DNA from: Candidatus Margulisiibacteriota bacterium
GTDB taxonomy: Bacteria > Desulfobacterota > Binatia > HRBIN30
Length of the DNA stretch: 64,000 nucleotides
Reading direction: 5' to 3'
Assembly: GCA_035541735.1 (NCBI GenBank)
Contig: DATKMS010000266.1
Location: 28,834 to 92,833 of the forward strand
The notes below the pieces were generated by a model that was given only the letters and a program-made list of their open reading frames with translations, had not been told where the DNA came from and did not search any database. The stretch's first letter is position 1. Every line of letters begins with the position of its first letter. Positions 14,537 through 39,488 of the stretch are shown here, piece by piece. Position numbers and translations under genes: made by a program.

Positions 14537-15806
14537 AGCGCCCCCGGTCGAGTTGAACGGTACTGAGCGGTTGTACCGGGCCGCGGCAACAGCCGCCTTC
14601 GGGCTGCTGTGGATTGGGGCACGTGCGGCCGGCGTCTCCGCAGACAGCCTTCGTTGTCGCCGTGGAACCCTGCCGGCGGCAAACGGTCCGCTGTTGTGGT
14701 TTCATGGCGCGTCAGTCGGGGAATTGGGCGCGGCCTGTGCGCTCGCCACGCTGCTGGCGCAGCGCGGATATCAGTTCACGGCCGCGTACACGGCCAGCAA
14801 CCAGTCGGGGGTTGAATTTGTCGCCCATTCGGGCACTGCAAATTCAGTCGTCGCCCTCGCACCGTGGGATCATCCACGCTGGGTCGCCCGTGCCCTCGAA
14901 CAGTGGCAGCCGCGCGCGCTCTTCCTGGTGGAGACCGAGCTGTGGCCGACGTTGATCTTCGAAGCTTGGCGGCGCAAGGTGCCGGTCTTCTGTGTCAGCG
15001 CCCGCATCTATCCGCGCGACGTCGCCCGCTATCGCCTGATCCGCAGCCTGGTCGTGCCGATGCTCCGCCGTGTCACCGCCGTCCTGGCTCAGAACGATAC
15101 CGAGCGCGCTCGGCTTGTCGCACTCGGTGCCGATCCGGAATGCTGCAGCGTCGCGGGAAACTTGAAATATGTTCTTACCGAAGCCGCCCACATGCGCGAT
15201 AGCTCCTGGCGGTCCGAGCTGGGCTTGCACGGTGCCGAACCGGTCGTGGTCTTCGGGAGCGTCCATGGGGACGAAGTCCCTCTCATCTTTGCCGCATTGG
15301 AACAGTTGCCCATGCGGGTCTTGCGCGTAATTGTCGCACCGCGGCACGCACCGGCCGTGGCTGCGGTTGTGCGTGCGGCGCGGCAGCGCAAATGGCACGT
15401 GCACCGGCGAACAGCGGGGCCGCCCCCACGGGACTGGCAGATTCTGGTTCTCGACCGGATGGGGGAATTATCCTCCGCGTATGCTATGGCATCCGTGGCC
15501 GTCGTCGGAGGCGGCTTTGGGAAGCATGGTGGGCACAATCCGCTGGAGCCGGTCATGGTTGGGGCGCCCGTGATCTTCGGAGAACACTTCGATCATTTTG
15601 CGCAGGAAGTGCAGGCGCTGCAGGTGGTGACGCCGGAGGCCCGCGTCACGGGCGCGGTTCTGGGGCGCCGCCTGGCCGAATGGTTGAACAGGGCGGCGGA
15701 GCGCCAGCGTATCCAGGAGTTGCAGCGCCGCTGCCTTCCGGACGGGGCAGCGATCGCGCAGCGATACCTTACTATTCTGTCGCCGTGGCTTGGGGGTAAC
15801 GCGTGA
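14523..15806 (+). CDS. waaA: 3-deoxy-D-manno-octulosonic acid (Kdo) transferase
   Basis: LLWFHGASVGELGAA signature. GT30 C-terminal half ...SFGKHGGHNPLEP. ATG at 14523 is in frame. The upstream part of the 498-aa track ORF overlaps the previous gene and was rejected. Confidence 0.9.
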   Translation: MHPGEAPPVELNGTERLYRAAATAAFGLLWIGARAAGVSADSLRCRRGTLPAANGPLLWFHGASVGELGAACALATLLAQRGYQFTAAYTASNQSGVEFVAHSGTANSVVALAPWDHPRWVARALEQWQPRALFLVETELWPTLIFEAWRRKVPVFCVSARIYPRDVARYRLIRSLVVPMLRRVTAVLAQNDTERARLVALGADPECCSVAGNLKYVLTEAAHMRDSSWRSELGLHGAEPVVVFGSVHGDEVPLIFAALEQLPMRVLRVIVAPRHAPAVAAVVRAARQRKWHVHRRTAGPPPRDWQILVLDRMGELSSAYAMASVAVVGGGFGKHGGHNPLEPVMVGAPVIFGEHFDHFAQEVQALQVVTPEARVTGAVLGRRLAEWLNRAAERQRIQELQRRCLPDGAAIAQRYLTILSPWLGGNA

Positions 15807-17077
15807 CCTCGAACGGCAGATGCCCGACGATTTGTTTCGTGGCAGCCGATGTGTCCGGCGATCAGAATGCCGCCAGATTGGCGGCTGCGATCCGCGAGCG
15901 CGCGCCCGAGGTGCGTCTACTCGGTGCCGGCGGTGCCGCCATGCGCGCAGCCGGCGTCGAGGTTGTTGTCGAGACCACCGATCTGTCGTTCATCGGCGTG
16001 CTCGGGTCGTTGCGGCTGCTGCGGCAGCTGATCGGGAGATTTCGTCGTGCGCAGCGCAGCATCGCTGCCGCGCGTCCGGACCTGGTGGTCCTGGTCGACG
16101 CCGAGACCGTGAATCTGCCTGCGGCCATGTGGTTCCGGCGCAAACGCGTGCCGGTCGTCTTCTTCTTTCCCCCGCAAGTCTGGTTCTGGGGGCGCTGGCG
16201 CCTGCCGGCGATCGTTCCGCTTGCACGCCGCGTGCTCTCTGCCTTTCGCGACGAAGCCAAGCTGTTCGCTGCCGCCGGCGCGGACACGGTGTGGGTTGGG
16301 CACCCGCTGCGCGACCTGACGCACGTCGCAGAGAGTCCCAAGGCCGCCTTGCAATCGATCGGGCTCGATCCATCACGCCCGCTGATTGCCCTGATGCCCG
16401 GGAGCCGACGCAATGAGATTCGTGCACTGGCGGCACCGATGCTCGGGGCGGCACGATTACTCCAGCAGCGCGATCCGACGCTGCAGTTCGCATTGCCGCT
16501 GGCCAGCGAGGTCCTGCGTGACGAGCTGGAGCACCGGGTGCGCGAGAGTGGCGTGCAAAACGTCGCAATCTACCACCATCCGAAGTCCTACGCAGTCTTG
16601 AGTCAGGCGCGCCTCGTTCTGCAGTGCTCCGGCACCGCAACGCTCGAGGCCGCGCTACTGGGCCTCCCAGCGGTGATCGTCTACCGCTGCCATCCAGTCG
16701 AGTACGTCGTCGCGCGTCACTTGCTGCTCGCGGTGCCGTTCATCGGCATGCCCAACATTCTGCTCGGGGAGATGGTGCAGCCGGAATTCTTCCACAAGAA
16801 CGTTGACGCCGAGCACTTGGCCAAGGAAGCCTGGTCGTTGCTCACCGATCCGCGCCGGCGCTCCGGTATCCAATCACGCCTGGCGACGCTGCGTGAGCTC
16901 CTCGGACCCGCCGGTGTGGTGCCGCGCGCCGCGGAGGCCGTGCTCGATCTGCTGCCACAAGCGGCGCTCGCGAGTTCGCGGGCGGCGGTGTCGTCTAGCG
17001 GCCTTGCTGCAAACCTCCCGCACGGTCCGAGCGTGCCCCTACCGGGCGCGCCAGCACGCGCTCTGCCTGGGCAATGA
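15803..17077 (+). CDS. lpxB: Lipid-A-disaccharide synthase
   Basis: GTGA start/stop overlap with waaA. N-terminus FVAADVSGDQNAARLAAAIRE...VRLLGAGGAAMRAAGVE...DLSFIGVLG parallels E. coli LpxB. LLPGSRRNEI-type motif present (LMPGSRRNEIRAL). Confidence 0.9.
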   Translation: MTSNGRCPTICFVAADVSGDQNAARLAAAIRERAPEVRLLGAGGAAMRAAGVEVVVETTDLSFIGVLGSLRLLRQLIGRFRRAQRSIAAARPDLVVLVDAETVNLPAAMWFRRKRVPVVFFFPPQVWFWGRWRLPAIVPLARRVLSAFRDEAKLFAAAGADTVWVGHPLRDLTHVAESPKAALQSIGLDPSRPLIALMPGSRRNEIRALAAPMLGAARLLQQRDPTLQFALPLASEVLRDELEHRVRESGVQNVAIYHHPKSYAVLSQARLVLQCSGTATLEAALLGLPAVIVYRCHPVEYVVARHLLLAVPFIGMPNILLGEMVQPEFFHKNVDAEHLAKEAWSLLTDPRRRSGIQSRLATLRELLGPAGVVPRAAEAVLDLLPQAALASSRAAVSSSGLAANLPHGPSVPLPGAPARALPGQ

Positions 17078-18086
17078 GCGCGTCGGCCGTCGAAGGCAGA
17101 CACGGCCGCCTCCGCCAGCACCATTGCGGGCAGCCGAGACCACACTGCCCGTCACCGCGCACAACCAGATCCTCGTAGCGGTACGGGGCCTTGCGCCAGG
17201 TTGTGGTTGGGCCGTAGAGGCCGACCACGGGACGACCCAACGCCGCTGCAATGTGTGCCGACCCGGTGTCTGGCGCGATATGGATCGCGCAGCGGTCGAG
17301 CAGGGCGACCAATTCGGGCAGCGTCGTGCGGCCCGTGAGATCGTACACCGCCCGACCGGCGCGGCGGGCGACGTCTGCGTGCACCGCTTTTTGCGCCGAT
17401 CCGCCAACCAGGATGATTGTGCCGGCTGTGCTCAACGCGTTTGCCACGCGTGCCCACTGCTCGACAGGCCAGGTCCTCCACGCTACCGACGCAGATGGAT
17501 TGATGACGATCAGCGGGGGCTCCTCAGGAACGTCGATCTCGGCCAGTTTTTGGTCGATCGACGCCCTGGCTTCCGGCTGGACCGGAAGGGCGAACGACAC
17601 CGGTGTCGGTGCCGCTCCGAGGAACTCCGCACAGCGCAAGTAGTCTTCCGCCACGTGAAGACGTCCGCAGTGGCGCGGCATGGCCCACGAGACGAGCTGT
17701 GCACCTTCGCGTTGCTCGTGCACGCCGATGCGCAGCGGCGCTTCCGAGAGCAGGGCCACGACGGCGCTCTTCAAGAGTCCCTGGAGATCGATGCTGACGT
17801 CGTAGGAGGCGTCCCGCAAGCGCTGCACAGCCCGCCAGTACGACTGCACCCACCTGGGACCGAAGCAGCCCCAGCGCATGGTCGGAAACACCACGATGCG
17901 ATCGATGGCTGGATGACCGTGCAGCAACGGCGCCGTCCACTCTTCCGCAGCCCAGCTGATGTGCGCTTGCGGGTAGCGCCGCCGCAGTGCAACCGCCACT
18001 GGAAGGGCGTGCACGACGTCGCCGATTGAGGACATCTTCACGATCAGCAGGCGTCTCAATCGGGAGGGATCAAAATGGAAGGGCAT
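16995..18086 (-). CDS. GT9 ADP-heptose:LPS heptosyltransferase (WaaC-like)
   Basis: RRLLIVKMSSIGDVVHALPVAVALRRRYPQAHISWAAEE...HPAIDRIVVF resembles the WaaC N-terminus. C-terminal DTGSAHIAAALGRPVVGLYGPT. The start at 18086 abuts the upstream gene end at 18092. Confidence 0.8.
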   Translation of the reverse strand: MPFHFDPSRLRRLLIVKMSSIGDVVHALPVAVALRRRYPQAHISWAAEEWTAPLLHGHPAIDRIVVFPTMRWGCFGPRWVQSYWRAVQRLRDASYDVSIDLQGLLKSAVVALLSEAPLRIGVHEQREGAQLVSWAMPRHCGRLHVAEDYLRCAEFLGAAPTPVSFALPVQPEARASIDQKLAEIDVPEEPPLIVINPSASVAWRTWPVEQWARVANALSTAGTIILVGGSAQKAVHADVARRAGRAVYDLTGRTTLPELVALLDRCAIHIAPDTGSAHIAAALGRPVVGLYGPTTTWRKAPYRYEDLVVRGDGQCGLGCPQWCWRRRPCLPSTADALIAQAERVLARPVGARSDRAGGLQQGR

Positions 18087-18091
18087 CCTGC

Positions 18092-19873
18092 TCACTCTGC
18101 TGAGTCTGCCCGTTCGGTCCACTCGCGCCGCTCGAACAGGCGGAGCCGGGTCCACTGCCCCATCGAATAGTTGAACCCGTTCGCCGACCACACTTCGTGG
18201 ATACCGACGCCCAGCTCTCCCGCTGCCCGCTCGAAAGCTGCGAGCTGATCCTCACTCACCAGCACCAGGCCAGCGCTTCGTTGCCTGAGCAAGGCGACGG
18301 CGGGTCGGGGTTCGATCAGCGCCGTGTTCATTCCGGCAAGGAAAATCAGACTCGGTTCGTGATAGCCGACCGCCGCAAGCGGACGCGAGCCGTTGCCGCG
18401 ACGCGGCCGGTGTGCGATCGCTACGGCTGCGCGGTTGCTCAACCAGAGCGCGCGCAGCTCGGGAAGTACCCAATGCAGGACTGGAGCGAAGAGCAGGACA
18501 CTGCCAATCACGGCGACCCATGATGCGCCGATCAGCTGGGCCCTCCGACACAGCCGGACGCAAACGATGCAGATCAGGCATGCTGCCCACGCCGCACAGA
18601 GCACGGCAACGTCGACGCCATCGCCGAAGCGCCTGGCGCCCGTGATGATGACAACACCGGCAGCGCACGTGACGAGGCTCCAGAGCACACAACCGCCAAG
18701 CAGCAGGCGGTGCGACCTGCGCCAGAGATTCGCCGGCGGGTCGAAGACGGCAGCCGCCACCAACAGCGCCAGAGCAGGGTACGCCGGCAAGACGTAGTGC
18801 GGCAGCTTCGTGGGCATGACTTCGAAGAAGAGCCACGTCGGAACCAGCCACGCCAGACAGAAGCGCTCGGCACACTGCTCGCGCCGCGCGACGCCGCGAA
18901 CAATCCCGAGCCCGGCGGCGAACGATCCCGGCCAGAACGTTGCGGTGAGCAGCAGCAGGTACAAGCCGGGTGGCGCGCCATGGGTTTCCTGCCCGCCCAG
19001 GATCTTGGGCAGGAGGTCGCCGCCAATCCACTCGCGGTAGAACCTCCAATCGGTCGACACGCCGGCCGCAATCATCCACGGCGACAGGAGAACCATCATC
19101 AGCGGAAACCCCCAGCGCGCGTACAGTCCCGCGAGCGTCTGAGTCATGCCGCGACGGTCGAAGAGCACTAGCGCGCCGACCGTCAGGCTGCTGACTAAAG
19201 GCACGATCGGTCCCTTGACCAGAATACCTACGGCCTGCGCGAGCCAGAATCCGACTGCGTATCGCCTGCGGGAGAGGCCCGTGCCGTGCGCGGCAAGGTA
19301 CAGCAACGCAAGACACCCTTGTGCCGCCACGACGCACGCCAGCAGCACCGCGTCCGTCGTGGCGAGATGCGCCTCGACAACCAGCAGCGCGGACGACGCC
19401 AGGAAGGCTGCGCCGAGCAGTGCGGCACGCCGATCGAAGAGCTGAGCACCGATCCCATAGGTCAGAAGCACCGCCACATACGCCCCGAGTAGCGACGGCA
19501 GCCGGTACGCCCAGATCGCCGGACGGCCCTGCTGCTGCGTGACGGAAACGGCAGCCGCCTGCAGCCAGTAGATGCCGATCGGCTTGTTGAAGCGATCGTC
19601 GGTCTGGAAATGCGGCCGGACGAAGTCGCCACTGTCGACCATCTGCTTCGTCGCTTGCGCAAAACGCGGCTCATCCCGATCAACCGGAGGGATTGTGGTG
19701 AGCCCCGGAAGATAGACGGCCAGGCACAGCAAGGTCAGCAACACATACGCCAGCGCGTTTTGACGGCGGCGCGCGGAGCGCACGAACGACAGCGGTCGCA
19801 TCGCCGCCGCAGATTGACACCGCATGCCGGTCTGGGCAACCTTGCGCGAGCGTTTGCGGGCGCTCGCTCGCAC
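18092..19873 (-). CDS. ArnT/PMT-like GT-C membrane glycosyltransferase (GT83/GT39 type), copy 1
   Basis: VDRDEPRFAQATKQMVDSGDFVRPHFQTDDRFNKPIGIYWLQA is the typical ArnT-like first periplasmic loop. It has more than 10 hydrophobic helices. The start is probably internal (M17 or M25) because fabL starts 15 nt from M1. Confidence 0.8.
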   Translation of the reverse strand: MRASARKRSRKVAQTGMRCQSAAAMRPLSFVRSARRRQNALAYVLLTLLCLAVYLPGLTTIPPVDRDEPRFAQATKQMVDSGDFVRPHFQTDDRFNKPIGIYWLQAAAVSVTQQQGRPAIWAYRLPSLLGAYVAVLLTYGIGAQLFDRRAALLGAAFLASSALLVVEAHLATTDAVLLACVVAAQGCLALLYLAAHGTGLSRRRYAVGFWLAQAVGILVKGPIVPLVSSLTVGALVLFDRRGMTQTLAGLYARWGFPLMMVLLSPWMIAAGVSTDWRFYREWIGGDLLPKILGGQETHGAPPGLYLLLLTATFWPGSFAAGLGIVRGVARREQCAERFCLAWLVPTWLFFEVMPTKLPHYVLPAYPALALLVAAAVFDPPANLWRRSHRLLLGGCVLWSLVTCAAGVVIITGARRFGDGVDVAVLCAAWAACLICIVCVRLCRRAQLIGASWVAVIGSVLLFAPVLHWVLPELRALWLSNRAAVAIAHRPRRGNGSRPLAAVGYHEPSLIFLAGMNTALIEPRPAVALLRQRSAGLVLVSEDQLAAFERAAGELGVGIHEVWSANGFNYSMGQWTRLRLFERREWTERADSAE

Positions 19874-19888
19874 AGCAGGAAGGCATGG

Positions 19889-20644
19889 ATGTCAGGCACG
19901 CTTGCCGGCAAAGTCGCACTGGTCACCGGCGCCTCCCGAGGAATCGGTCGAGCCATCGCACACAAGCTCGCCGTGGCCGGCTGCGACGTCGCCGCCAACT
20001 ACTACAACAGCCACGACGAGGCTGCAGCGCTGTGCGCCGAGATCCGTGCCCTCGGTCAGCGGGCGTATGCGATCCAGGGCAACGTCGCCAACCCGGAAAG
20101 CGTCGATGAGATCATCGCCGCGTTTCGTACGCATTTCGACCACCTCGACTTTCTGGTGAGCAACGCCGCCAGCGGTGTGCTCAAGCCCGCGCTGGAGATG
20201 ACGCTCAAGCATTGGCGCTGGTGCCTGGAAACCAACGCCCTGGCCCTGAACCTCCTGGCGCAGCGGACGGTGCCACTGATGCCGCCGGGCAGCCGCATCG
20301 TCGCGATCTCCAGCCTTGGGGCGCACTATGCCATGCCGAGCTACGGCTTCGTCGGTGCCTCGAAGGCGGCGCTGGAATCCTTGGTGCGCACGCTGGCGCA
20401 AGAACTCGGACCGCGCGGCATTCGCGTCAACGCGGTGAGCGCCGGACCAGTCGATACCGATGCGTTGCGCTCCTTCCCGCAGCGTGAACAGCTGCTCGCC
20501 AGCTTTGCACAGCGCGCGCCAGCCGGGCCCGTACTGAGCACTCAGGACGTCGCGGGAGCTGTCTATCTCCTCTGTCTTCCCGAGGCCAGCATGGTGTCGG
20601 GGCATACCTTGGTGGTCGACGGCGGATTTTCCATTGTGAGCTGA
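19889..20644 (+). CDS. fabL: FabL-type enoyl-[ACP] reductase (SDR)
   Basis: KVALVTGASRGIGRAIA. NAASGVLKPALEMTLKHWRWCLETNALAL, ISSLGA...VGASKAALESL and VNAVSAGPVDTDALRSFPQRE closely parallel B. subtilis FabL as recalled from memory. Confidence 0.75.
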   Translation: MSGTLAGKVALVTGASRGIGRAIAHKLAVAGCDVAANYYNSHDEAAALCAEIRALGQRAYAIQGNVANPESVDEIIAAFRTHFDHLDFLVSNAASGVLKPALEMTLKHWRWCLETNALALNLLAQRTVPLMPPGSRIVAISSLGAHYAMPSYGFVGASKAALESLVRTLAQELGPRGIRVNAVSAGPVDTDALRSFPQREQLLASFAQRAPAGPVLSTQDVAGAVYLLCLPEASMVSGHTLVVDGGFSIVS

Positions 20645-20659
20645 CGGCTGACGACACCG

Positions 20660-21430
20660 ATGCCTGCAAGCTTTCTGCACGACTCCGGTCTCGCCAACAA
20701 GGTCGCCATCGTCACCGGTGGCAGCCGCGGGATCGGGCGGGCCATCGTTGAGCTCTTTGCCGCGGAGGGTGCCGAGGTGACCTTCCTCTTTCGGGAAAAC
20801 ACCTCGGCCGCAGCTGACGTCGTCGCTGCGGGACGCGCCGCCGGGCAGCAGATTGCCGCGGAGCAAGTAGACGTGTGCGACGCCGACGCGTGCGCCGCGC
20901 TGGTGGAGCGGGTGGCGGAGCGCTGCGGGCGCATCGACGTGTTGGTCAACAACGCCGGCATCATCCGCGACAATCTGCTCGGCTTTCTTGAAACCGATGA
21001 CGTGCACGCCGTCCTCGACACCAACGTCGGTGGGGTGTTCAACGTCACGCGCGCGGTCGTGCCGCACATGATCGCCCGCCGCGCCGGCACGATCATCAAC
21101 GTCAGCTCCGTGGCCGGCGACAGAGGCGGGCGCGGGCAAACCAACTACGCTGCCAGCAAGGGTGCGATCAACGCCTTCACTCGTGCGCTGGCGGTAGAGC
21201 TGGCACCACGCCGGATCACGGTGAACGCGGTCGCTCCCGGGGTCATCGAAACCGAGATGTCGCGACAGCTGCGCGAGCGTGCCGGCAGTGAGGTGCAGTC
21301 GCGCATTCTGCTGCGCCGGCCGGGGACGCCGCTGGAAGTTGCCTATGCGGTCTGCTTCCTTGCCTCGCGCTATGCCGAATACATTACGGGGCAAGTGCTG
21401 CACGTCGACGGCGGATTCAAGATGGAGTGA
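20660..21430 (+). CDS. fabG: 3-oxoacyl-[ACP] reductase
   Basis: KVAIVTGGSRGIGRAI, NNAGIIRDNLL, SSVAG...NYAASKGAINAFTRALAVELAPRRITVNAVAPGVIETEM, and a C-terminal ITGQVLHVDGGF. Confidence 0.85.
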   Translation: MPASFLHDSGLANKVAIVTGGSRGIGRAIVELFAAEGAEVTFLFRENTSAAADVVAAGRAAGQQIAAEQVDVCDADACAALVERVAERCGRIDVLVNNAGIIRDNLLGFLETDDVHAVLDTNVGGVFNVTRAVVPHMIARRAGTIINVSSVAGDRGGRGQTNYAASKGAINAFTRALAVELAPRRITVNAVAPGVIETEMSRQLRERAGSEVQSRILLRRPGTPLEVAYAVCFLASRYAEYITGQVLHVDGGFKME

Positions 21431-21436
21431 AGCGAA

Positions 21437-21868
21437 GTGATGCCGATGGAGATCAGCAGGGAAGAGGTGCTGGCGGTGCACCCGAAGGTTGCCGAGATCA
21501 TGGCCGATGCGCTGGCATGCGACGTCGAGCAGCTCGGGCTCGACGTGCCGCTCATCGACGGGCTCAATGCCGAATCGATCGACTTCCTCGACATGGTCTT
21601 CCGCCTCGAGCGCGCCTTCAAGGTGAAGATCCCACGCGGCAAAATCGTCGAGGATGCACGCGGCGAGCTGTCGGAAGCCGAGTTCGAACATAAAGGCGTG
21701 CTGACTGACGCGGGTCTGGCGCGGCTACGCGCCTACCTGAGCGAGGTGCCGGCCGAGCGCTTCCAGTCGCCCATGAAGGTGGCCGACGTGCCGCGGCTGT
21801 TCACGGTCGAGACATTTTGCCGGCTCGTCGTGCGCGCCCGGCGCACGGCCGGGCTGGCAACTCCTTGA
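21437..21868 (+). CDS. Acyl carrier protein with ~60-aa C-terminal extension
   Basis: Helix II region LIDGLNAESIDFLDMVFRLERAF corresponds to the DSLD Ser attachment motif. Total length is 143 aa versus about 80-95 for FAS ACPs. Confidence 0.7.
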   Translation: MMPMEISREEVLAVHPKVAEIMADALACDVEQLGLDVPLIDGLNAESIDFLDMVFRLERAFKVKIPRGKIVEDARGELSEAEFEHKGVLTDAGLARLRAYLSEVPAERFQSPMKVADVPRLFTVETFCRLVVRARRTAGLATP

Positions 21869-21894
21869 ACCACCTTGCCGACAGGTTCGGGGAC

Positions 21895-22737
21895 ATGCTG
21901 CCCCAGCAGCTCGGCACCTTCTCATTCGTCGACCGCATCACCGACAGCGAGGCCGACACGCGTGCGCGCGGCTCGTTCGCCATTCCCGCGGCGCTGGCGC
22001 ACTTCTCCCCTTGCCTGGTCGCCGAAGCAGTGGGGCAGCTTGCCGCATGGGTCGTAATGGCGCGGCATGATTTCCGGCGGCGGCCGCTCGCGGCACTGGC
22101 CGGCGAGGCACATCTCCTCGCTGATGCACTGCCGGGCCGGATTCTCGAACTTGGCGTCGAGATCGAAGAGTGGGATGATGACGCCGTGGGGTATGCGGGC
22201 TGGGCATCCATCGGCGACACGCCGGTCATCCAAGTGAGGAACTGTGTGGGAGCGCTGTTGCCGCTGGAGAACTTCGACGACCCGGTGACGGCACGCGATC
22301 GCTTTGCGTTGCTGCGCGGTCCAGGTGCTCAGCCCGGTCGCTTTCCTGGCGTCGCCGATGCCGGCATCCGGTTGATCGAGCGTGAACCGGGCAGGCGGCT
22401 GCGGGCGTTGATGAACGTTCCGGAGTCAGCGCCATTCTTTGCGGAGCACTTTCCACGTCGTCCGCTGTATCCGGCGACGCTCCTTCTCGATGCCCAGATC
22501 CGCCTGGCCATCGACCTGGCGCGCGAGGTGGATCGGCCGGCGGCGTACGTCCGTGTTCGGCCCGTGCGGGTCGCGGACGTCAAGCTGCGATCATTCATCC
22601 TTCCCGGTCAGGCGATAGAGACAACGGCGGAGGTGGCTGCGGGGTCGAGCCATACGGTGCTCATTGCGCTCGCCGCCACAGTGGAGGGAAAGCGGGTGGC
22701 GACAGCGCGTGTGGAAGTGGCCGCGGAGGAAACGTGA
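21895..22737 (+). CDS. Double-hotdog FabA/FabZ-like beta-hydroxyacyl-ACP dehydratase
   Basis: First half FSFVDRITD...AHFSPCLVAEAVGQLAAW. Second half ESAPFFAEHFPRRPLYPATLLLDAQIRL (FabZ-like HF..P..PG pattern). An alternative TTG start at 21865 would overlap the ACP stop. Confidence 0.65.
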   Translation: MLPQQLGTFSFVDRITDSEADTRARGSFAIPAALAHFSPCLVAEAVGQLAAWVVMARHDFRRRPLAALAGEAHLLADALPGRILELGVEIEEWDDDAVGYAGWASIGDTPVIQVRNCVGALLPLENFDDPVTARDRFALLRGPGAQPGRFPGVADAGIRLIEREPGRRLRALMNVPESAPFFAEHFPRRPLYPATLLLDAQIRLAIDLAREVDRPAAYVRVRPVRVADVKLRSFILPGQAIETTAEVAAGSSHTVLIALAATVEGKRVATARVEVAAEET

Positions 22738-24035
22738 GCACGGAACGACGCCGCGTCGCGGTCACCGGGTTGGGTCTCGTCACCCCGCTCGGCAACGATG
22801 TCCGCACGACGTGGGAGGCCTTGCTCGCCGGCCAGAGTGGCGTGGGCCCGATCACGACCTTTGACGCGAGCGGCTTTCCCGTGTGCATCGCCGCCGAGGT
22901 GAAGGAATTCGAGCCGACTCGACACATCGACGACCGCAGACTGCTCAAGTTCGCCAGCCGCTTGCACGCCTTCGCGCTGGTTGCTGCCGACGAAGCGCTG
23001 CACGATGCCGGCATCCGACCGGTTGCGGACACTGCGGAGCGCTGGGGTTGCGTCGTAGGCAGCGGCATCATGGGCAGCGAGTTTCATGAGCTCGCGGCGG
23101 TGCAGCGCGCTTGCGCACCCGATGGCCAGCTGAGTGTGCCGCGTCTCTTTGCCGATGACGCGGCTGCGGATCCCATGGCATTCTGCCGCAGCCAGACGAG
23201 TGCGGGGCTGGGTGTGTTGTTGCGGCGCTTCGGCATTCGCGGCTACGCCAGCACCGTGCATACCGCCTGTGCATCCGGAGGCCAGGCGGTGGGGTTGGCG
23301 ATGAAGTTGATCCGGCGAGGCACTGCCGACTATGTGCTCGCCGGCGGCTGCGACTCGATGATCAATCCCGTCGGGCTGTCGGGCTTCTGTTTGCTCGGCG
23401 CCCTCTCGCCCGACAGCGACGCGCCGCAGCGGGCCAGTCGCCCCTTCGATGCCACGCGCAACGGCTTTGTGCTCGGAGAGGGCGCCGGCTTTCTCGTGCT
23501 CGAAGAGTGGACGGCGGCATGCCGACGCGAGGCGCGCATCTACGCGGAACTCGCCGGGGACGGCAACTCGTTGAGCAGTTACCGCATCACCGACTCCCAT
23601 CCATCCGGCGATGGGCCGATCCAGGCGATGCGCCAGGCTTTGGCGGACGCCGGAGTGCTCCCGGAAGAGGTGGACTACTTGAACGCCCACGGTACATCGA
23701 CACCAATGAACGACCGCAGCGAGTGTGCCGCGGTGCGCGCGGTGTTCGGCGCTCACGTGCCGCAGATTGCCGTGAGCTCGACCAAGAGTCTCATGGGGCA
23801 TCTCATCGCCGGCGCCGGCGCCGTCGAGGCGGCCATCTGCGCCCTGGCTATCCATCACGGCGTCCTGCCGGTGAACGCGAACCTCGAAGAGCCCGATCCG
23901 GAGTGTGCGCTGTCATTCGTTCTTGCCCGGCCCCATCGCCAACATGTGCGCGTGGCCATGTCGAACTCATTCGGCTTCGGCGGCTCGAACAGTTGCGTTG
24001 TCCTACGCAACACCGAAGCGGTGCGCGGGAAGTGA
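22734..24035 (+). CDS. Beta-ketoacyl-ACP synthase (FabF/FabB-like, catalytic triad intact)
   Basis: RRVAVTGLGLVTPLGN. Cys site VHTACASGGQAV. His sites NAHGTSTPMND and KSLMGHLIAGAG. GTGA overlap with the dehydratase stop. Confidence 0.9.
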   Translation: MSTERRRVAVTGLGLVTPLGNDVRTTWEALLAGQSGVGPITTFDASGFPVCIAAEVKEFEPTRHIDDRRLLKFASRLHAFALVAADEALHDAGIRPVADTAERWGCVVGSGIMGSEFHELAAVQRACAPDGQLSVPRLFADDAAADPMAFCRSQTSAGLGVLLRRFGIRGYASTVHTACASGGQAVGLAMKLIRRGTADYVLAGGCDSMINPVGLSGFCLLGALSPDSDAPQRASRPFDATRNGFVLGEGAGFLVLEEWTAACRREARIYAELAGDGNSLSSYRITDSHPSGDGPIQAMRQALADAGVLPEEVDYLNAHGTSTPMNDRSECAAVRAVFGAHVPQIAVSSTKSLMGHLIAGAGAVEAAICALAIHHGVLPVNANLEEPDPECALSFVLARPHRQHVRVAMSNSFGFGGSNSCVVLRNTEAVRGK

Positions 24036-24041
24036 AGACGG

Positions 24042-25319
24042 ATGGGCGCCGACGCAACGCGGGTGACGATCACCGGCGCCGGTGCGATCTGCGGCGCCGG
24101 CAAGGACCCGGACGCAATCTGGGAGGTGGTGCGCGCTGGGCGATCGGCAATTGCACCGATTCGCCAGTGGGAGGCTGCGGGTGTGCCGCTGCCGCCGGCC
24201 GGCGAGGTCGCGGATCTGGACGCGCGCGAGCTGGTCGCGGATCGCAAGGTCCACAAGGTGCTCCGGCGCACGGACTTGCTCGGCTTGTACGCGGCGGGCA
24301 AGGCCATCGAGGACGCGTCTCTCGTCGCGTATCGCGCGACCCTTGATCCCGTCGCTGCCGCAACCTACAGCGATCGTACCGCGGTCTTCGTCGGCTCAGG
24401 CGGCGGCACGTATCAGAGCCAATACGATTTCTTCCCCTTGCTCACGGCAGTGCAGGGGGACCTGCGCGCGTTTGGCGGCGCGCTGAACGCGACAATCAAC
24501 CCGATGTGGTTGTTGCGCACGCTGCCGAACAACGTGCTGTGTCATATCGGGATACGATATGGGTTCAAGGGGGCGAACGCCTGCGTGACGCATCACAGTG
24601 TCAGCGGAACGCTGGCCATCGCCGAAGCCGCCGCGGCGCTGCGTGCAGGCGAGGCGGAGCGTGCCGTCGCCGTCGGACACGACGCGCCGATCGAGCCACA
24701 GACCATCCTCTACTACCAGCGACTCGGGCTCCTCGCGGCGGATGCCATTCGCCCCTTTGATGGTGCGCGTAGCGGCAGCCTGCTCGGCGAGGGTGCAGCG
24801 GCAGTGGTGCTCGAGACGGCAGCGGCCGCCGCCGCACGCGGCGCCAAAGTCCTCGGCGAGTTCCTCGGCAGCGCTTGCACTGCCGAAGCAGAAGGGCTGT
24901 TGGCCATCCGCGCCGACGGCGACGGCCTGGCACGTGCCATCACACTGGCGCTCGACGACGCCGGGCTGCAGCCTGCCGATGTGGGCATGATCGTGGCGCA
25001 TGGCAACGGCACGCGTGCGTCCGATGCGGTGGAAGCCGCCGTGATCCAGCGGCTGTTCGGCCGGACGCCGCCACCAGTCACCGCGTTCAAGTGGGCGTTC
25101 GGCCACCTCCTGGCTGCCTCCGGTGTCGTCGACGCGGTGCTGGCGCTGATGGCCCTACGCCGCGGCATCGTGCCCGGTATCGCGACGCTGTGTCACCGCG
25201 ATCCCGAGTTCGGAGGTTTGCCAGTATCTGCCGGGCCACAGCTGCCGCGCAGCAACGTGGCGCTGGTCATCAGCCGCGGCTTCGCGGGGACTACCGTCGT
25301 GCTGCTCGTCCGAGCGTGA
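24042..25319 (+). CDS. Ketosynthase-like partner subunit with Ser at the active-site Cys position (chain-length-factor-like)
   Basis: Thiolase-fold KS throughout. The active-site region reads NACVTHHSVSGTLAI instead of xTACASG. The His motifs VAHGNGTRASD and FGHLLAASG are retained. Confidence 0.8.
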   Translation: MGADATRVTITGAGAICGAGKDPDAIWEVVRAGRSAIAPIRQWEAAGVPLPPAGEVADLDARELVADRKVHKVLRRTDLLGLYAAGKAIEDASLVAYRATLDPVAAATYSDRTAVFVGSGGGTYQSQYDFFPLLTAVQGDLRAFGGALNATINPMWLLRTLPNNVLCHIGIRYGFKGANACVTHHSVSGTLAIAEAAAALRAGEAERAVAVGHDAPIEPQTILYYQRLGLLAADAIRPFDGARSGSLLGEGAAAVVLETAAAAAARGAKVLGEFLGSACTAEAEGLLAIRADGDGLARAITLALDDAGLQPADVGMIVAHGNGTRASDAVEAAVIQRLFGRTPPPVTAFKWAFGHLLAASGVVDAVLALMALRRGIVPGIATLCHRDPEFGGLPVSAGPQLPRSNVALVISRGFAGTTVVLLVRA

Positions 25320-25327
25320 GGGTGACG

Positions 25328-26536
25328 ATGGCAATGACGGTGCGTTCGGATCCGCTGATGCGCTGTGGTATCGACACCGTGGAGATTGCCCGCGTCGAGC
25401 GCCTGCTCCGCGAGACTCCCGCTGACGATCTCCTCAAGATCTTTTCTCGTGAGGAGTTATTGGAGAGTGGTCACAATGCGGGGCGCGCCGCGAGCCTGGC
25501 GGCGCGGTTTGCGGCGAAGGAAGCGTGCCTCAAGCTCTTCCCGAGCGAAACGGCGCTGGGCGTGATCGGCCCGAGCGACTTTTCCGTCGCCCGTGACGGC
25601 TACGGCGCACCCCAGGTCAGGTGCAGCCACAAGGCTCTGGAGGTCTTGGATCGGTACCGGGTCAAAACCATCGCGCTGTCGTTGACACACGACAAGACCA
25701 GCGCGTCGGCTGTCGCTCTGTCTGAGCCCGCCCACGTCGACGTGCCACGCAGCGGCAAGATCATCTTCTACCTGCTGCCGATTCGCCGACAGGTGATGTT
25801 GGCCAATCTGTATCGCGTCTTCGGCGGGCGGCTCACCAATGCGGATATCAAGCGTCTCGCCCAGGCGCACTACGGGCATCTCGCCCGCGTGTGCATCGAG
25901 TTCTTCACGTCTGCGTGGCGCTCACCGGCCGTCCGCGTGGAGAACATCGACGCCATCCTGCGCGCGCACGCGCAGGGGAAGGGTGTGCTCGTGCTCACCG
26001 GCCATTTCGGGAATTGGGAGGTGGCGACCGTCGGCGGCATCCAGACCTTCCCCGAGTATCGCGGGCAGTTTCACTTCGTCCGGCGGCCGCTGTTCCCGCG
26101 GTGGCTCGAGCGTCTGGTGACGCGACGCTTTCGCCGCAGCGGCCTCGGCGTGTTGCCGAAGCGCGGCGCGCTCGATGCGATTCTCGACCGCCTGGCAGCC
26201 GGCGATGCCGTGGTGTTCGTCTTCGATCAGCATGCGGGCGGCAGAGACGGCATCGCCGTCGACTTCTTCGGGTACGCAGCCGGCACCTTTCGCAGCCTCG
26301 CAGTCATCGCGCTGGCCACCGGTGCGCCGGTCGTGCCGAGCGCGACGTGGCGGGAGGCGGACGGGAGCCACGTGCTGCGGTTCGAGGAAGCGCTACCCGT
26401 CATCGAGGACGAAGATACGAACGCGGCGATCCGCGCCAACACGCGCGCCTACAACGCGGCCATCGAGCGGCTCGTCCTGCGGCACCCCGAGCAGTGGTTC
26501 TGGCTGCATCGGCGGTGGAAGCCGACTTCTCCGTGA
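25328..26536 (+). CDS. Fusion protein: AcpS-type holo-ACP synthase (PPTase) plus lipid A late acyltransferase (LpxL/HtrB family)
   Basis: N-terminal ~125 aa: CGIDTVEIARVERLL, ARFAAKEACLKLF, IALSLTHDKTSASAVAL. The rest: YLLPIRRQVMLANLYRVFG, LTGHFGNWE (HX4E), FDQHAGGRDGIAVDFFG, HPEQWFWLHRRWK. There is no stop or frame change between the halves. GTG at 25322 is an alternative start. Confidence 0.8.
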   Translation: MAMTVRSDPLMRCGIDTVEIARVERLLRETPADDLLKIFSREELLESGHNAGRAASLAARFAAKEACLKLFPSETALGVIGPSDFSVARDGYGAPQVRCSHKALEVLDRYRVKTIALSLTHDKTSASAVALSEPAHVDVPRSGKIIFYLLPIRRQVMLANLYRVFGGRLTNADIKRLAQAHYGHLARVCIEFFTSAWRSPAVRVENIDAILRAHAQGKGVLVLTGHFGNWEVATVGGIQTFPEYRGQFHFVRRPLFPRWLERLVTRRFRRSGLGVLPKRGALDAILDRLAAGDAVVFVFDQHAGGRDGIAVDFFGYAAGTFRSLAVIALATGAPVVPSATWREADGSHVLRFEEALPVIEDEDTNAAIRANTRAYNAAIERLVLRHPEQWFWLHRRWKPTSP

Positions 26537-26612
26537 GCGGGAGGGACTGATGCGGGCTGCGGACAACGGCCTCAGGCGCCATCCACGCGAGCGCCCGATC
26601 GGCAGTTCCCCG

Positions 26613-27296
26613 CTACCCGAGGGCGACAGGCGGCCCCCACCCGCGTGCGGCGGTTGCGAGAAACGCCTCCTGGATTTCCTGTACGCTGTAGGCGGCCCCC
26701 TCAGCCGTCGGAGGCAACAAGCGCAGCTCCGCCTCCACCCGTGCAAACGGCAGAGGCAGGCGGGCACGGTCCCACGACTTGAACGTGACGGCGTGGCTGG
26801 CCGCGGTTCTGGCAACGACCACCGCTGCATGCGCCGCGGACACCGTGCGTGCCACACCGTCCTTGACCACGCCGCGCGGGCCACGCGGTCCATCGACTGC
26901 CAGAACGCCGATGGCACCCGCTTGTATGCGCTGAATGAACTCCTGCGCGCCGTCGACGCCGCGCGTAGCGCTCGGCAGCGCGACGGAATCGACGCCGAAG
27001 TGGTTGAGCGTGGCGGCCATGAGTCTGCCGTCGAGGCTCGGGGTCAACAGCCCGAGCCAGCGGCGTCCGAATGGCTCCCACATGCGGGCCCAGGCCAGCG
27101 ATGGCGGCAGCTCCCCGTGGCATACCACCACGATGACCCGCGGCTGCCGGGCGATTTCCTGCACCGTCGCCTCCGGCAGTTCACGCCGCCGCCAGCTCCA
27201 GACCAACAGGCGAAGCGGAACGATGGCGACGGGCACCACCAGCTTTTCGAGAATCCAGAAGCGCAGCTCCCGCAGCCGTCTGGTCAATGGAGCCAT
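26613..27296 (-). CDS. DUF374 family protein (lysophospholipid-acyltransferase-like, usually Kdo-transferase associated)
   Basis: N-terminal helix followed by ...VVVCHGELPP...LLTPSLDGRLMAATLNHFGVDSV...GAIGVLAVDGPRGPRGVVKDG, which is typical of DUF374 proteins. Confidence 0.7.
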   Translation of the reverse strand: MAPLTRRLRELRFWILEKLVVPVAIVPLRLLVWSWRRRELPEATVQEIARQPRVIVVVCHGELPPSLAWARMWEPFGRRWLGLLTPSLDGRLMAATLNHFGVDSVALPSATRGVDGAQEFIQRIQAGAIGVLAVDGPRGPRGVVKDGVARTVSAAHAAVVVARTAASHAVTFKSWDRARLPLPFARVEAELRLLPPTAEGAAYSVQEIQEAFLATAARGWGPPVALG

Positions 27297-27312
27297 GGGG
27301 GCGCAGCGATCG

Positions 27313-28200
27313 TCAGCGGTGGGCGAGGCGGGCGCCGCACAGCTTCTCCAAGATACTGAGCGGTGCCTTGTCGGGTAGGAGCAGGCTGCGGCGCGGGATG
27401 ATGTAGGTTTGCTCCAAGGCGTAGCGTCCCGACAGCGCCGCGTGCGGCACGAAATCGGTGAACACGATCCAGGTCGAATTCGGCGGAAACTCCCACTCGT
27501 GTTTCTTGCACGTGGCTTGGAACAGGCGATTCGCCTTCAGGTAGTCGTGAAAACGCAGCATGAGATCGTCGTAGAGCGAGGGCTGCCGAACGCGGATGCC
27601 GGCGGCACGGGCTGCTTTGACGATGCGGCGGCGCCACTGCGTCGCCACGGGCAGTGTCAGCGCCGCTGAGCCGGTGAACTGCGAGGCCAAGACGTCGAAG
27701 GCATCGGTGGTCACCCAGCGGCGCGGCTCGCGCGGATTGATATTGCTGAACACCCGCAGAATGCGGTTGCCATTGGTCGGCCGCGAAGGAAAGGCGTCGA
27801 TGTGTAACAGGTCGTTGCGCGCCCGCCGCGGCAGGCTGCGTCCCTCCTCCTCTTGCGGCCGGAAGCTGGCGTAGTCGACCGTCCACGCCCCGGCGTAGAG
27901 CGGCAGCAGTGATGCCAGAAAGTGTGTGACCTGTTGCGAATATCGCCGCATGATGGAACGCAGCGTCTCTGCATCCCCCGAGTGGCGCTCGACGAACCCG
28001 CTGACACGGTCCCGCTGCGGTTCATAGGCGATGTTCTTATGACGCCTATCCAATTGTTGGGCGAGCAGGAACGCGCGCTGGTCAGCGTCGAGGTCGAAGG
28101 GCAGTTGAGGAAACACGAGCAGCTGCCCCTCCTCCAGGCGCCTGCTGTACGCGCGTCCCTGGTCACCATTTCCGTTGTCGTTGGGTTGTGACAAGTTCAT
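27313..28200 (-). CDS. kdoO: Kdo hydroxylase (Fe(II)/2-oxoglutarate Kdo2-lipid A dioxygenase family)
   Basis: LLHIDAFPSRPTNGNRILRVFSNINPREPRRWVT (HxD facial-triad motif) and VFTDFVPHAALSGRYALEQTYIIP (distal His) match my recollection of the Kdo_hydroxy family. The context is waaF, DUF374 and waaA. Confidence 0.7.
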   Translation of the reverse strand: MNLSQPNDNGNGDQGRAYSRRLEEGQLLVFPQLPFDLDADQRAFLLAQQLDRRHKNIAYEPQRDRVSGFVERHSGDAETLRSIMRRYSQQVTHFLASLLPLYAGAWTVDYASFRPQEEEGRSLPRRARNDLLHIDAFPSRPTNGNRILRVFSNINPREPRRWVTTDAFDVLASQFTGSAALTLPVATQWRRRIVKAARAAGIRVRQPSLYDDLMLRFHDYLKANRLFQATCKKHEWEFPPNSTWIVFTDFVPHAALSGRYALEQTYIIPRRSLLLPDKAPLSILEKLCGARLAHR

Positions 28201-28206
28201 GAGGCG

Positions 28207-29250
28207 ATGTTGGCACCGCTACCTGAGCGCGTACTGGTGAAGGAAGTCAACTGGCTGGGCGACGTCGTGATGAGTCTGCCGGCGTTGCGCGCCGTGCGCC
28301 GCGCCTTGCCGCGGGCGCACCTGGCGGTGCTGGTAAAGCGCGAACTCGCCGGGTTCTTCGACGGATCGCGGTGGATCGATGAAGTCCTCCCGTACACGGT
28401 GGCGCGCGGACTGCAGGGGGTTGTCGATCGGTGGCGCATCGTGGCGCAGATCCGGGCGCGCCGCTTCGATCTGGCCGTCCTGTTTCCGAGGAGCTTCGAA
28501 TCCGCGCTCTGGGTGACGCTGGCGCGCGTCCCGCGCCGCGCGGGCGTGGTCGCCGACGCCCGTGGGCTGCTGCTGACACATGGGACCAAGCTCGCCGGTG
28601 ATGCTCTCGAGGGCCACCAGGTTGGGCGGTACCTGTACCTGCTCCGTCAGGTGCTGGACATCGACGGGAGCAGCGGTGACTACGTACCGGATATCCACGA
28701 ACCGCATCGCTTGCACATGCGCGCCTGGCTCACCACTCGCCGCCAGCGCCCACAGGCGAAGCTGGTCGCGCTGGCCGCGGGAGCGGCGTTCGGGCCGGCG
28801 AAGGAGTGGCCGGCGGCACACTACGCTGCGCTCATTGATCTGTTGGCGCAGCGCTATGCGGCGGAGTGTGTCCTGGTGGGGAGCGGCGGCGAGCGGCGTA
28901 AGTGTGAGGAGGTCGTTGCAGCCAGCAAGGCCGGCGCGCTCATCGCTGCGGGCGAGACGAATGTCGGCGAGTTGCTGGCGTTGCTGTCGCTGTGCGACGC
29001 CTTTGCCGGCAACGACTCCGGCGCCATGCACGTCGCCGGGGCGATCGGCATCCCCACCGTCGGGTTGTTCGGGTCGACCAACCCGGAGCACACCGGCCCG
29101 CTCGGCGCGAACGCCAGCGTGCTGTACCATCGGATCGAGTGCAGTCCGTGCCTGCAGCGCACCTGCCGCTTCGGCCACTACCAATGCCTGCAGCAGATCT
29201 CGCCGGAGGAAGTCGTGAAATCCCTCTCCGACCGCGGCGCCTTCGAGTAA
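28207..29250 (+). CDS. waaF: GT9 ADP-heptose:LPS heptosyltransferase II-like
   Basis: RVLVKEVNWLGDVVMSLPALRAVRRALPRAHLAVLV resembles the WaaF N-terminus. C-terminal GNDSGAMHVAGAIGIPTVGLFGSTNP. Confidence 0.8.
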   Translation: MLAPLPERVLVKEVNWLGDVVMSLPALRAVRRALPRAHLAVLVKRELAGFFDGSRWIDEVLPYTVARGLQGVVDRWRIVAQIRARRFDLAVLFPRSFESALWVTLARVPRRAGVVADARGLLLTHGTKLAGDALEGHQVGRYLYLLRQVLDIDGSSGDYVPDIHEPHRLHMRAWLTTRRQRPQAKLVALAAGAAFGPAKEWPAAHYAALIDLLAQRYAAECVLVGSGGERRKCEEVVAASKAGALIAAGETNVGELLALLSLCDAFAGNDSGAMHVAGAIGIPTVGLFGSTNPEHTGPLGANASVLYHRIECSPCLQRTCRFGHYQCLQQISPEEVVKSLSDRGAFE

Positions 29251-35179: not shown

Positions 35180-35197
35180 TCGTTTTTGAACAAGCTG

Positions 35198-39441: not shown

Positions 39442-39488
39442 GGGTTCACTTGCGCACGCTGGCGTGCCAACTATGATGCGGCGCTTCC

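Follow-up and report, generated by a model that had tools for sequence, protein, structure and literature searches.

A candidate dedicated type II fatty acid synthesis cassette with a fused AcpS-acyltransferase protein in a lipopolysaccharide locus of Binatia and in other bacterial phyla

A cassette of seven co-directional genes occupies positions 19889-26536 (forward strand) of a 64,000-nucleotide stretch of contig DATKMS010000266.1 (assembly GCA_035541735.1, Candidatus Margulisiibacteriota bacterium, placed by GTDB in Binatia), below called the window. It encodes a line of type II fatty acid synthesis (FAS-II) and ends in a fusion of an AcpS-type 4'-phosphopantetheinyl transferase (PPTase) with an acyltransferase domain of the PF03279 (Lip_A_acyltrans) family. 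Judging from the sequences, this is very probably a dedicated fatty acid synthase feeding the fused transferase, with activation of the carrier by AcpS, borrowing of FabD, priming by a pair of ketosynthases and full reduction of the chain taken together. The complete proposal, an orthogonal FAS-II module that hands its product over to its own late acyltransferase with lipid A as the acceptor, is less certain, and we hold it to be slightly on the probable side.

The genes encode, in this order, a FabL-type enoyl-acyl carrier protein (ACP) reductase (ER; 19889..20644, 251 amino acids), a FabG-type 3-oxoacyl-ACP reductase (KR; 20660..21430, 256 amino acids), a dedicated extended ACP (21437..21868, 143 amino acids), a double-hotdog 3-hydroxyacyl-ACP dehydratase (DH; 21895..22737, 280 amino acids), a FabF-like beta-ketoacyl-ACP synthase (KS1; 22734..24035), a partner resembling a ketosynthase (KS2; 24042..25319) and the fusion protein, which ends at 26536. 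The start of the latter is the ATG at 25328 (402 amino acids) or possibly the GTG at 25316. Its AcpS domain corresponds to 25328..25732, and the PF03279 domain to 25745..26536. The first three junctions measure 15, 6 and 26 nt; DH and KS1 then overlap by GTGA, KS1 and KS2 are 6 nt apart, and KS2 and the fusion again overlap by GTGA. With the ATG as the start of the fusion, the last junction becomes a gap of 8 nt. Thus the list of open reading frames (ORFs), the junctions and the family scans all agree with the original prediction of seven packed genes with gaps of at most 26 nt or GTGA overlaps. A scan for promoters and terminators in positions 19400-27400 found nothing within the block, which fits an operon, this being weak evidence. 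The GC content of the block is the same as that of its flanks. A frame at 21427-21693 overlaps the ACP ORF, has no family match and is not the ACP gene.

The block was said to cover every activity of an elongation cycle. Indeed, the four reactions of the cycle, the activation of the carrier and the transfer step are all encoded. However, this does not extend to the functions of FabD (malonyl-CoA:ACP transacylase) and FabH, as no homologue of either was found anywhere in the 64-kb window. Neither is the cassette accompanied by plsX in the window.

The distribution of the cassette shows that it is confined neither to this locus nor to one lineage. A scan of one genome per species produced at least 552 confirmed relatives, of which the best 80 loci were kept, and the window proteins were mapped to them by tblastn. 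Of these 80, 56 have exactly the order ER-KR-ACP-DH-KS1-KS2-fusion, and another 16, interrupted by contig ends, agree with it as far as they go. The other eight deviate; in particular, L067 contains only the fusion, and L050 has no DH gene. This synteny is far beyond chance. The carriers among the best 80 loci belong to NC10, Candidatus Binatia, Casimicrobiaceae and other Burkholderiales, and several orders of Verrucomicrobiota. The conserved cassette is thus present in at least four phyla, mostly outside lipopolysaccharide (LPS) loci, and its genes co-occur across phyla at 50-79% identity. The fusion has more than 100 close homologues with 65-88% identity. Both domains are present in 119 of the 120 fusion homologues among the matches listed, and those with a named source belong to NC10/Methylomirabilis, Nitrospira, Burkholderiales and Deltaproteobacteria metagenome-assembled genomes (MAGs).

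Some of the related loci have unusual junctions. In L050 (6782-8682, Binataceae), where the DH gene is missing, the ACP gene leads straight into KS1, and the latter has an insertion of about 50 residues. The junction between KS1 and KS2, which is 6 nt long in the window, holds a 2.8-kb insert in L085 (5932-8718) with an opposite-strand gene encoding a 795-residue secreted protein rich in Pro-Thr repeats; an Rfam scan of this insert found no RNA family match. In L106 (1493-5582) the same junction holds a PhdYeFM/PIN toxin-antitoxin pair and a gene of an 1148-residue adenylate cyclase-AAA_16 protein. A similar cyclase gene lies at 30400-34101 of the window, right after the LPS core glycosyltransferases; it encodes a 1233-residue protein with adenylate/guanylate cyclase, AAA_16 and TPR regions.

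Conservation of catalytic residues was read from alignments of 57-72 orthologues, depending on the protein. Every catalytic residue examined is invariant; this applies to KS1, the two histidines and the lysine of KS2, ACP, DH, ER, KR, AcpS and the acyltransferase. The ER matches Pfam adh_short_C2 (E 1e-65). Its best NCBIfam model is FabL (NF005975, 326.5 bits, just under the cut-off of 328), and its closest solved structure is FabL of Bacillus subtilis (PDB 3OIC, E 6e-58). The motif of short-chain dehydrogenases/reductases (SDR), Tyr152-x6-Lys159, is invariant in 57 orthologues. The KR scores 268.9 bits with TIGR01830 and 245.8 bits with the FabG subfamily model NF009466, exceeding the cut-off of 222. 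It is 43% identical to FabG of E. coli, and Tyr163 and Lys167 are invariant.

The ACP matches Pfam PP-binding (E 3e-7) and has Ser47 within an AESIDF motif, invariant in 59 orthologues. An additional stretch of about 50 residues separates helix II from the final helix. Among the ACPs compared, its best pairwise match is AcpXL of Sinorhizobium meliloti (35% identity, E 2e-11), and the identity to AcpP of E. coli is 26%. However, the scores are under all NCBIfam ACP equivalog cut-offs, including that of AcpXL (NF005079, 36.7 bits, cut-off 83). The AlphaFold2 (AF2) model, built on an alignment of close homologues, has seven helices (pLDDT 82.6). In a fold search with this model, where the E-values are weak (0.04-0.13), ordinary ACPs do not align beyond residues 55-65. 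The 'specialized ACP RPA2022' of Rhodopseudomonas palustris (3LMO/2KW2) gives the longest alignments (126 columns, TMq 0.5), at an E-value of about 0.1, and the resemblance is only a lead. We take RPA2022 to be an orthologue of AcpXL with an enlarged acyl cavity.

The C-terminal half of the DH matches FabA in Pfam (E 1.7e-10) and FabZ in NCBIfam (54 bits) and contains an HFPRRP motif; His185 is invariant. The N-terminal hotdog is not visible to Pfam. The alignment of 58 orthologues was split in two and the profiles of the halves were compared by hhalign. They match each other with 97% probability (E 1e-10), the N-terminal half lacking the ten-residue catalytic loop. Thus the enzyme is a genuine double hotdog, as predicted, consisting of a pseudo-hotdog and a catalytic hotdog.

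KS1 is an intact ketosynthase. It scores 433.7 bits with the NCBIfam FabF subfamily model NF005589, exceeding the cut-off of 387, and is identical to E. coli FabF in 40%, to FabF1XL in 38% and to ApeO/R in 31% of positions. The triad Cys179/His319/His356 and Lys351 are invariant in 64 orthologues. KS2 is more divergent (28% identity to FabF1XL, 24% to FabF2XL, 28% to E. coli FabF, 26% to ApeR, 30% to ApeO in a partial alignment). In alignments with solved FabF proteins and with FabF of E. coli, KS2 has Ser186 at the position of the nucleophilic cysteine, but retains His320, His355 and Lys350. The prediction of a Cys-to-Ser partner therefore holds for the window, but the substitution depends on the lineage. 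The nucleophile column contains serine in 49 sequences (the window included), cysteine in 17, glycine in two and threonine in one. Cysteine is found in all 17 Verrucomicrobiota orthologues, and the other 52 have Ser, Gly or Thr, which makes a clean split. Both histidines and the lysine are invariant in 72 aligned sequences, three of them being KS1.

Pairs of adjacent FabF-like genes, one of which lacks the nucleophilic cysteine, as in the window, are known from ketosynthase/chain length factor pairs of type II polyketide synthases, and also from ApeO/ApeC and amxFabF2/amxFabFmut. However, classical chain length factors, amxFabFmut and FabF2XL lose histidines too, whereas KS2 keeps both histidines and the lysine in all orthologues. 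Chains B and C of the PDB entry 9s5h, which may be the anammox amxFabF heterodimer, both match KS2. In anammox bacteria a FabF-like ketosynthase and its mutated partner form a heterodimer and prime synthesis by decarboxylation of malonyl-ACP (bioRxiv 10.64898/2026.05.19.726425). Given this precedent, priming by KS1/KS2 may explain the absence of FabH. By the same analogy we infer that KS1 and KS2 form a heterodimer.

In the fusion protein, both domains exceed the cut-offs of their families, in agreement with the predicted AcpS-LpxL architecture. The AcpS domain matches PF01648 (36.7 bits, cut-off 25) and TIGR00556 (52.1 bits, cut-off 45.35), and the Mg-binding residues Asp16 and Glu65 are conserved in orthologues. 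In the AF2 model of the fusion, also built on close homologues (pLDDT 84.3), this part superposes on AcpS structures with TMt 0.85. The acyltransferase domain is covered by PF03279 almost completely (profile positions 42-294 of 295, E 7.5e-39, 134 bits, cut-off 22.3). It contains the HX4E motif HFGNWE, whose His226 and Glu231 are invariant in 71 orthologues. A PlsC-type glycerolipid acyltransferase was rejected, as there is no match to PF01553 and PF03279 is covered end to end. The domain is 27% identical to LpxXL (E 7e-16) and 28.5% identical to E. coli LpxL (E 3e-13). Among NCBIfam models of the domain, LpxL models rank ahead (119, 95 and 88 bits) of the PatA model (69 bits). The best of them is PRK08419 (119 bits, cut-off 248); TIGR02207 scores 80 (cut-off 298), and the LpxXL-type PRK06553/NF005120 scores 95.3 (cut-off 273). 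The fold matches are PatA (E 3e-15, TMt about 0.8) and LpxM of Acinetobacter baumannii (5KN7, E 1e-13). Sequence comparison with solved structures produces the same order (PatA E 3e-11, LpxM 1e-6). The search with the modelled fold cannot tell a PatA-like from an LpxM-like function.

A search of plasmids found none with the fusion; the best matches are ordinary LpxL genes with at most 29% identity. Plasmid 'LPLAT' matches in Chondrinema and Jannaschia were inspected as possible aryl-polyene (APE) or flexirubin contexts, and neither is one.

A more remote form of the cassette is split (L100:2104-8879, L099:1113-2369). Here AcpS (125 amino acids) and the acyltransferase (about 292 amino acids, 37-49% identity) are encoded by separate adjacent genes in the same order. 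This argues that the link between the PPTase and the acyltransferase is functional and not an accident of fusion. The partnership is thus old, and the fusion is the derived state. More distant PF03279 proteins of 585-605 amino acids, 30-32% identical to the window domain, are encoded inside a housekeeping fab operon with the order yceD-rpmF-fabD-fabG-acpP-second ACP-[acyltransferase] (L102:5801-10995, L103, L104:890-5087). In L102 and L103 the next gene encodes a CDP-alcohol phosphatidyltransferase. This arrangement links the PF03279 family with a second ACP away from LPS genes.

The following mechanism can be proposed. The AcpS domain of the fusion would convert the dedicated extended ACP into its holo form, and malonyl groups would be loaded by an enzyme from outside the cassette, presumably the housekeeping FabD. 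KS1 would pair with KS2, prime the synthesis by decarboxylation of malonyl-ACP and then elongate. KR, DH and ER would fully reduce each round to a saturated acyl-ACP, with the length set by the KS1/KS2 tunnel. Finally, the PF03279 domain with its HX4E motif would take the chain over from the dedicated ACP and attach it to a hydroxyl group on a glycolipid of the envelope, most likely to lipid A as a secondary chain, thus acting as an equivalent of LpxL. The other secondary chain might be added by an LpxJ-type enzyme encoded by the adjacent gene. Because of the atypical architecture of its ACP, the cassette would need its own PPTase, KR, DH and ER, which the rhizobial cluster considered below borrows. 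The acceptor, the length and type of the chain, the priming route and the use of an external FabD are what we infer from the gene content. A 'very long' or 'unusual' chain is a hypothesis, as sequence cannot give the length or structure.

The cassette proteins were compared with the acpXL-lpxXL cluster of S. meliloti (L081), the aryl-polyene cluster of E. coli CFT073 (L090) and housekeeping genes of E. coli. The closest analogue is the acpXL-fabZXL-fabF2XL-fabF1XL-adhA2XL-lpxXL cluster of Rhizobiales, which is responsible for the very long secondary chain 27-OH-C28 of lipid A, and the analogy drawn in the original prediction stands. In both systems, genes for a dedicated ACP, a FabZ-type dehydratase and a PF03279 acyltransferase form a single co-directional block with those of an active and a degenerate ketosynthase. 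The two ketosynthase pairs are analogous, although KS1 is nearer to FabF of E. coli (40%) than to FabF1XL (38%) and KS2 has only 24% identity to FabF2XL. The ACP, the C-terminal half of the DH and the acyltransferase of the window match their XL counterparts (35%, 33% and 27% identity) better than, or equally to, the housekeeping or APE proteins. A degenerate ketosynthase partner had been listed as a difference between the two systems, and this has to be withdrawn: FabF2XL of S. meliloti is degenerate as well (Cys to Glu, one His to Ser), so that the degenerate partner is a shared design principle.

On the other hand, the cassette differs from the rhizobial cluster by its own ER, KR and fused PPTase, as had been noticed. 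Moreover, its DH is a double hotdog, its ACP is longer by about 50 residues, its KS2 keeps His-His-Lys (in Verrucomicrobiota, Cys as well), the order of the two ketosynthase genes is reversed, and the acyltransferase has no membrane helix. No AdhA2XL-type zinc alcohol dehydrogenase gene is found near the cassette; the only homologue in the window, with 30% identity, is at 62785-63735, 36 kb away. Orthology of the two systems is ruled out by the identities of 24-38% and by the scores under the AcpXL and LpxXL-type NCBIfam cut-offs.

In the window, the cassette is embedded in an LPS locus, and the Pfam scan agrees with the predicted flanks. Upstream are waaA (14310..15806, forward strand, PF04413, E 1.8e-44) and lpxB (15803..17077, forward, PF02684, E 1.1e-70), followed on the reverse strand by a GT9 gene (16995..18191, PF01075, E 4e-43) and a PMT_2/ArnT-like gene (18092..19873, PMT_2, E 4e-12; ArnT NCBIfam model 89 bits, cut-off 567). 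Downstream are, on the reverse strand, a DUF374 gene (26613..27296, PF04028, E 6.8e-12), a candidate 3' secondary lipid A acyltransferase, and the Kdo hydroxylase gene kdoO (27313..28200, PF11004, E 3e-94). Then there are, on the forward strand, a GT9 heptosyltransferase gene (28207..29250, PF01075, E 1.5e-43) and a GT1/GT4 glycosyltransferase gene ending at 30245 (Glyco_trans_1_4, E 1.8e-9). By eye only, the CHGE, VDGPRGP and SWD motifs of the DUF374 translation were matched to LpxJ. The LpxJ family, to which DUF374 corresponds, consists of 3' secondary lipid A acyltransferases (PMC6148475), and an LpxJ-type gene is thus located 77 nt from the fusion.

Such embedding is limited to the own clade of the window (L085 and L106, whose fusions are 87% and 78% identical to that of the window) and one Binataceae MAG (L050). 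In the former two, PMT_2 or KdoO, GT9, GT1 and PAP2 genes surround the cassette, and in the latter the order is waaA-lpxB-cassette-GT9-KdoO. The aconitase encoded in the window has its closest named match in a Candidatus Binatia MAG (76% identity), and metagenome proteins match it with 85-88% identity. A different hint at lipid A comes from 24 Burkholderiales loci (e.g. L058:11106-12182, L030, L023), in which the next gene after the fusion, with the same orientation, is LpxO-like. A representative of these genes scores 448 bits with the NCBIfam LpxO model (cut-off 500) and 101 bits with OlsC, the ornithine-lipid hydroxylase. LpxO hydroxylates secondary acyl chains of lipid A.

About 42 loci in Burkholderiales and Verrucomicrobiota (e.g. 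L026:1492-4522, L058:206-4451) have an extended form of the cassette, with three or four extra genes tightly packed before ER on the same strand. They encode a membrane methyltransferase of the ICMT/PEMT family, with a weak match (25 bits) to the model of the Leptospira lipid A methyltransferase LmtA; and a divergent acyltransferase with the Condensation fold, weakly similar to PapA5 and WS/DGAT. The remaining one or two genes encode lipoproteins that bear a GHSQGG lipase motif and match no family. The window contains none of these genes. The extra genes suggest a larger system of 10-11 genes with a product that may be more elaborate than one acyl chain.

The acceptor is the point on which the readings differ most. 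For lipid A speak the membership of the domain in PF03279, the matches to LpxXL and LpxL, and the rank of the LpxL models ahead of PatA. The adjoining LpxJ-family gene, the absence of any other PF03279 gene from the 64-kb window, and the LpxO-like genes following it in 24 loci also point to lipid A as the probable acceptor. Finally, every named carrier is a member of a diderm phylum. One alternative is that the same FAS core supplies a fused domain acylating some other glycolipid, such as the lipid anchor of a polysaccharide or a glycosyl-lipid, and that the LPS neighbourhood is a general envelope locus. This seems unlikely, although a number of observations favour it, and most of them weigh against acylation of lipid A at the same time. 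The domain scores under every LpxL equivalog cut-off. Its nearest solved structure both by sequence and by fold is PatA, an enzyme that acylates glycolipids other than lipid A. Mycobacterial PatA, which acts on phosphatidylinositol mannosides, is a peripheral membrane enzyme with no transmembrane helix, and the fusion likewise has no N-terminal membrane helix: its maximum 19-residue Kyte-Doolittle hydropathy (1.46) is internal, unlike the peaks at residues 19-22 of E. coli LpxL (1.56) and LpxXL (1.78). Compared with LpxL, LpxM and LpxP, with which it shares the nearly complete PF03279 profile, the HX4E motif and an LpxM-like fold, the N-terminal anchor is replaced by the AcpS domain, and the donor is presumably the private ACP instead of AcpP. 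A neighbour-joining tree of 11 reference proteins and nine fusion domains (100 split-based bootstraps) agrees in part with the expectations, as the fusion domains fall in neither a PlsC nor an ApeD clade, the identity to ApeD being the lowest in the tree (16%). However, they are not placed within the proven lipid A acyltransferases either. The fusions form a clade with 100% support outside the classical LpxL/M/P clade (E. coli, Pseudomonas, Neisseria, Acinetobacter; 99-100%), and no position for them with respect to LpxXL, the PatA-like or the remaining PF03279 proteins reaches 50% support, the split joining them with LpxXL having 6%. The tree thus leaves the acceptor unsettled. Further, most genomes have no LPS genes next to the cassette; its neighbours there are RsmI, amidohydrolase, peptide ABC transporter and carbonic anhydrase genes. 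Many loci have a PapA5-like acyltransferase, lipase-motif lipoproteins or GT2, and a simple model of a secondary acyl chain does not explain the PapA5-like, ICMT-family and lipase-motif genes. VexE, the Vi-antigen anchor enzyme, is reported to be a family member acting on another glycolipid (PMC9597891). The relatives from fab operons beside CDP-alcohol phosphatidyltransferase genes agree with that. The proposed module is further weakened by the lack of FabD in the window and by KS2 of Verrucomicrobiota, which may be a second true ketosynthase, since it keeps the cysteine. PatA uses palmitoyl-CoA and belongs to Actinobacteria, where it is not known to be accompanied by a dedicated FAS module. 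Another glycolipid as the acceptor is at odds with the 119 bits of the LpxL model against 69 of PatA, with the LpxO-like genes, with the LpxJ-family neighbour in a region that has no second LpxL homologue, and with the recurrence of the waaA-lpxB ... KdoO-GT9 embedding in Binataceae. Acylation of lipid A is thus retained as our reading, with the reservation that the domain forms a clade of its own outside classical LpxL/M/P.

The two other explanations concern the synthase itself. The block could be an ordinary second copy of housekeeping FAS-II, beside a normal LpxL using C12-C16 acyl-ACP, which provides redundancy or condition-specific supply and makes no special chain. KS1 does exceed the cut-off of a FabF subfamily and KR that of a FabG one, and the GC content does not set the block apart; nevertheless, we consider this explanation improbable. 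The ACP of 143 residues, with its conserved insertion, is far from AcpP and under all equivalog cut-offs, and neither a dedicated PPTase nor a ketosynthase partner devoid of the nucleophile nor a double-hotdog dehydratase is a housekeeping feature. Besides, the seven genes travel together across phyla, and fabD, fabH and plsX do not accompany them. Even less credible, and in fact already contradicted, is a cluster for aryl polyenes or another type II polyketide pigment, in which the acyltransferase would be the equivalent of ApeD and the missing genes would be located elsewhere. The APE cluster is also an ACP-based type II system with a ketosynthase and its partner, KR, hotdog dehydratases and a lipid acyltransferase; the KS1/KS2 architecture resembles ApeO/ApeC, and DH orthologues bear precomputed matches to the ApeI-like family PF22818. 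However, the cassette has a conserved ER, and in direct comparison with CFT073 (blastp E <= 0.01, phmmer E <= 10) its acyltransferase, ACP and DH do not match ApeD, ApeE/F and ApeI/P, respectively, nor does KS2 match ApeC. KS1 and KS2 resemble FabF and FabF1XL more closely than they do ApeO or ApeR. The starter, methyltransferase, thioesterase, glycosyltransferase and exporter genes (ApeH ligase, ApeB, ApeK, ApeJ, LolA/MMPL) are absent among the Pfam-scanned ORFs (most of the long ones) of the window and of the flanks of related loci.

How permeable the outer membrane is, how well the cell resists stress and how innate immunity recognizes it depend on the acyl chains of lipid A. To our knowledge, AcpXL/LpxXL of Rhizobiales and a few other groups is the only system devoted to making such a chain, and the principle of a dedicated ACP, ketosynthase and acyltransferase is therefore already known from that system. 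What sets the cassette apart is that it is complete, has a fused activator and an extended ACP, and keeps its order across mostly uncultured phyla; it is a self-sufficient alternative with its own carrier, activator, condensing pair, three reducing enzymes and transferase. No description of the cassette or of an AcpS-LpxL fusion was found in the openly available full-text literature (subscription journals were not covered). A bolder version of our proposal, possible if doubtful, is that the cassette evolved independently of AcpXL/LpxXL, as its second counterpart, and spread horizontally. As a portable plug-in, it would make a non-standard chain de novo on an orthogonal, enlarged ACP and attach this chain to lipid A; its carriers are hundreds of species, mostly uncultured, from NC10, Binatia, Nitrospira-labelled MAGs, Burkholderiales and Verrucomicrobiota. 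The extended form with PapA5-like, ICMT-family, lipase-motif and LpxO-like genes would produce a lipid A with further decorations, not described so far, or else a new glycolipid of the outer membrane. If lipid A is indeed the acceptor, unusual lipid A structures are to be expected in the carrier groups, whose phyla dominate soils and freshwaters and are mostly uncultured. The compact unit of seven genes could be tested in E. coli, and the orthogonal set of ACP, PPTase and FAS might be of use in lipid engineering. If the acceptor is not lipid A, the cassette marks an envelope lipid that is unknown and equally widespread.

Several neighbouring genes deserve mention. In sister lineages (L085:11266-15359, L086, L106:8099-12079) the region between the fusion and KdoO contains an Acyl_transf_3 (OpgC-like) gene, an SDR gene and a B12-binding radical SAM gene, the latter with weak matches to models of lipid and hopanoid C-methylase type. 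All three are absent from the window. These genes hint at possible further tailoring of the chain in these lineages.

The 40-64 kb part of the window contains more glycosyltransferase genes, a second PMT_2/ArnT-like membrane glycosyltransferase (41355-43274) and Wzt-like and MsbA-like ABC proteins. The MsbA-like exporter (57627-60236, 869 amino acids) has an N-terminal extension of about 290 residues. Two genes unexpected in this part encode a GINT1_N domain protein (44698-45894; N-terminal domain of glucosamine inositolphosphorylceramide transferase, E 1.5e-62) and a multihaem cytochrome c (51934-53583). The reverse-strand genes at 34151-40274 encode a polyprenyl synthetase, a 319-residue protein with no Pfam match, a 726-residue amine-oxidase/FAD protein and a saccharopine-dehydrogenase-like protein, and are followed by an acetoacetate-decarboxylase-like gene on the forward strand; this may be an isoprenoid-related block.

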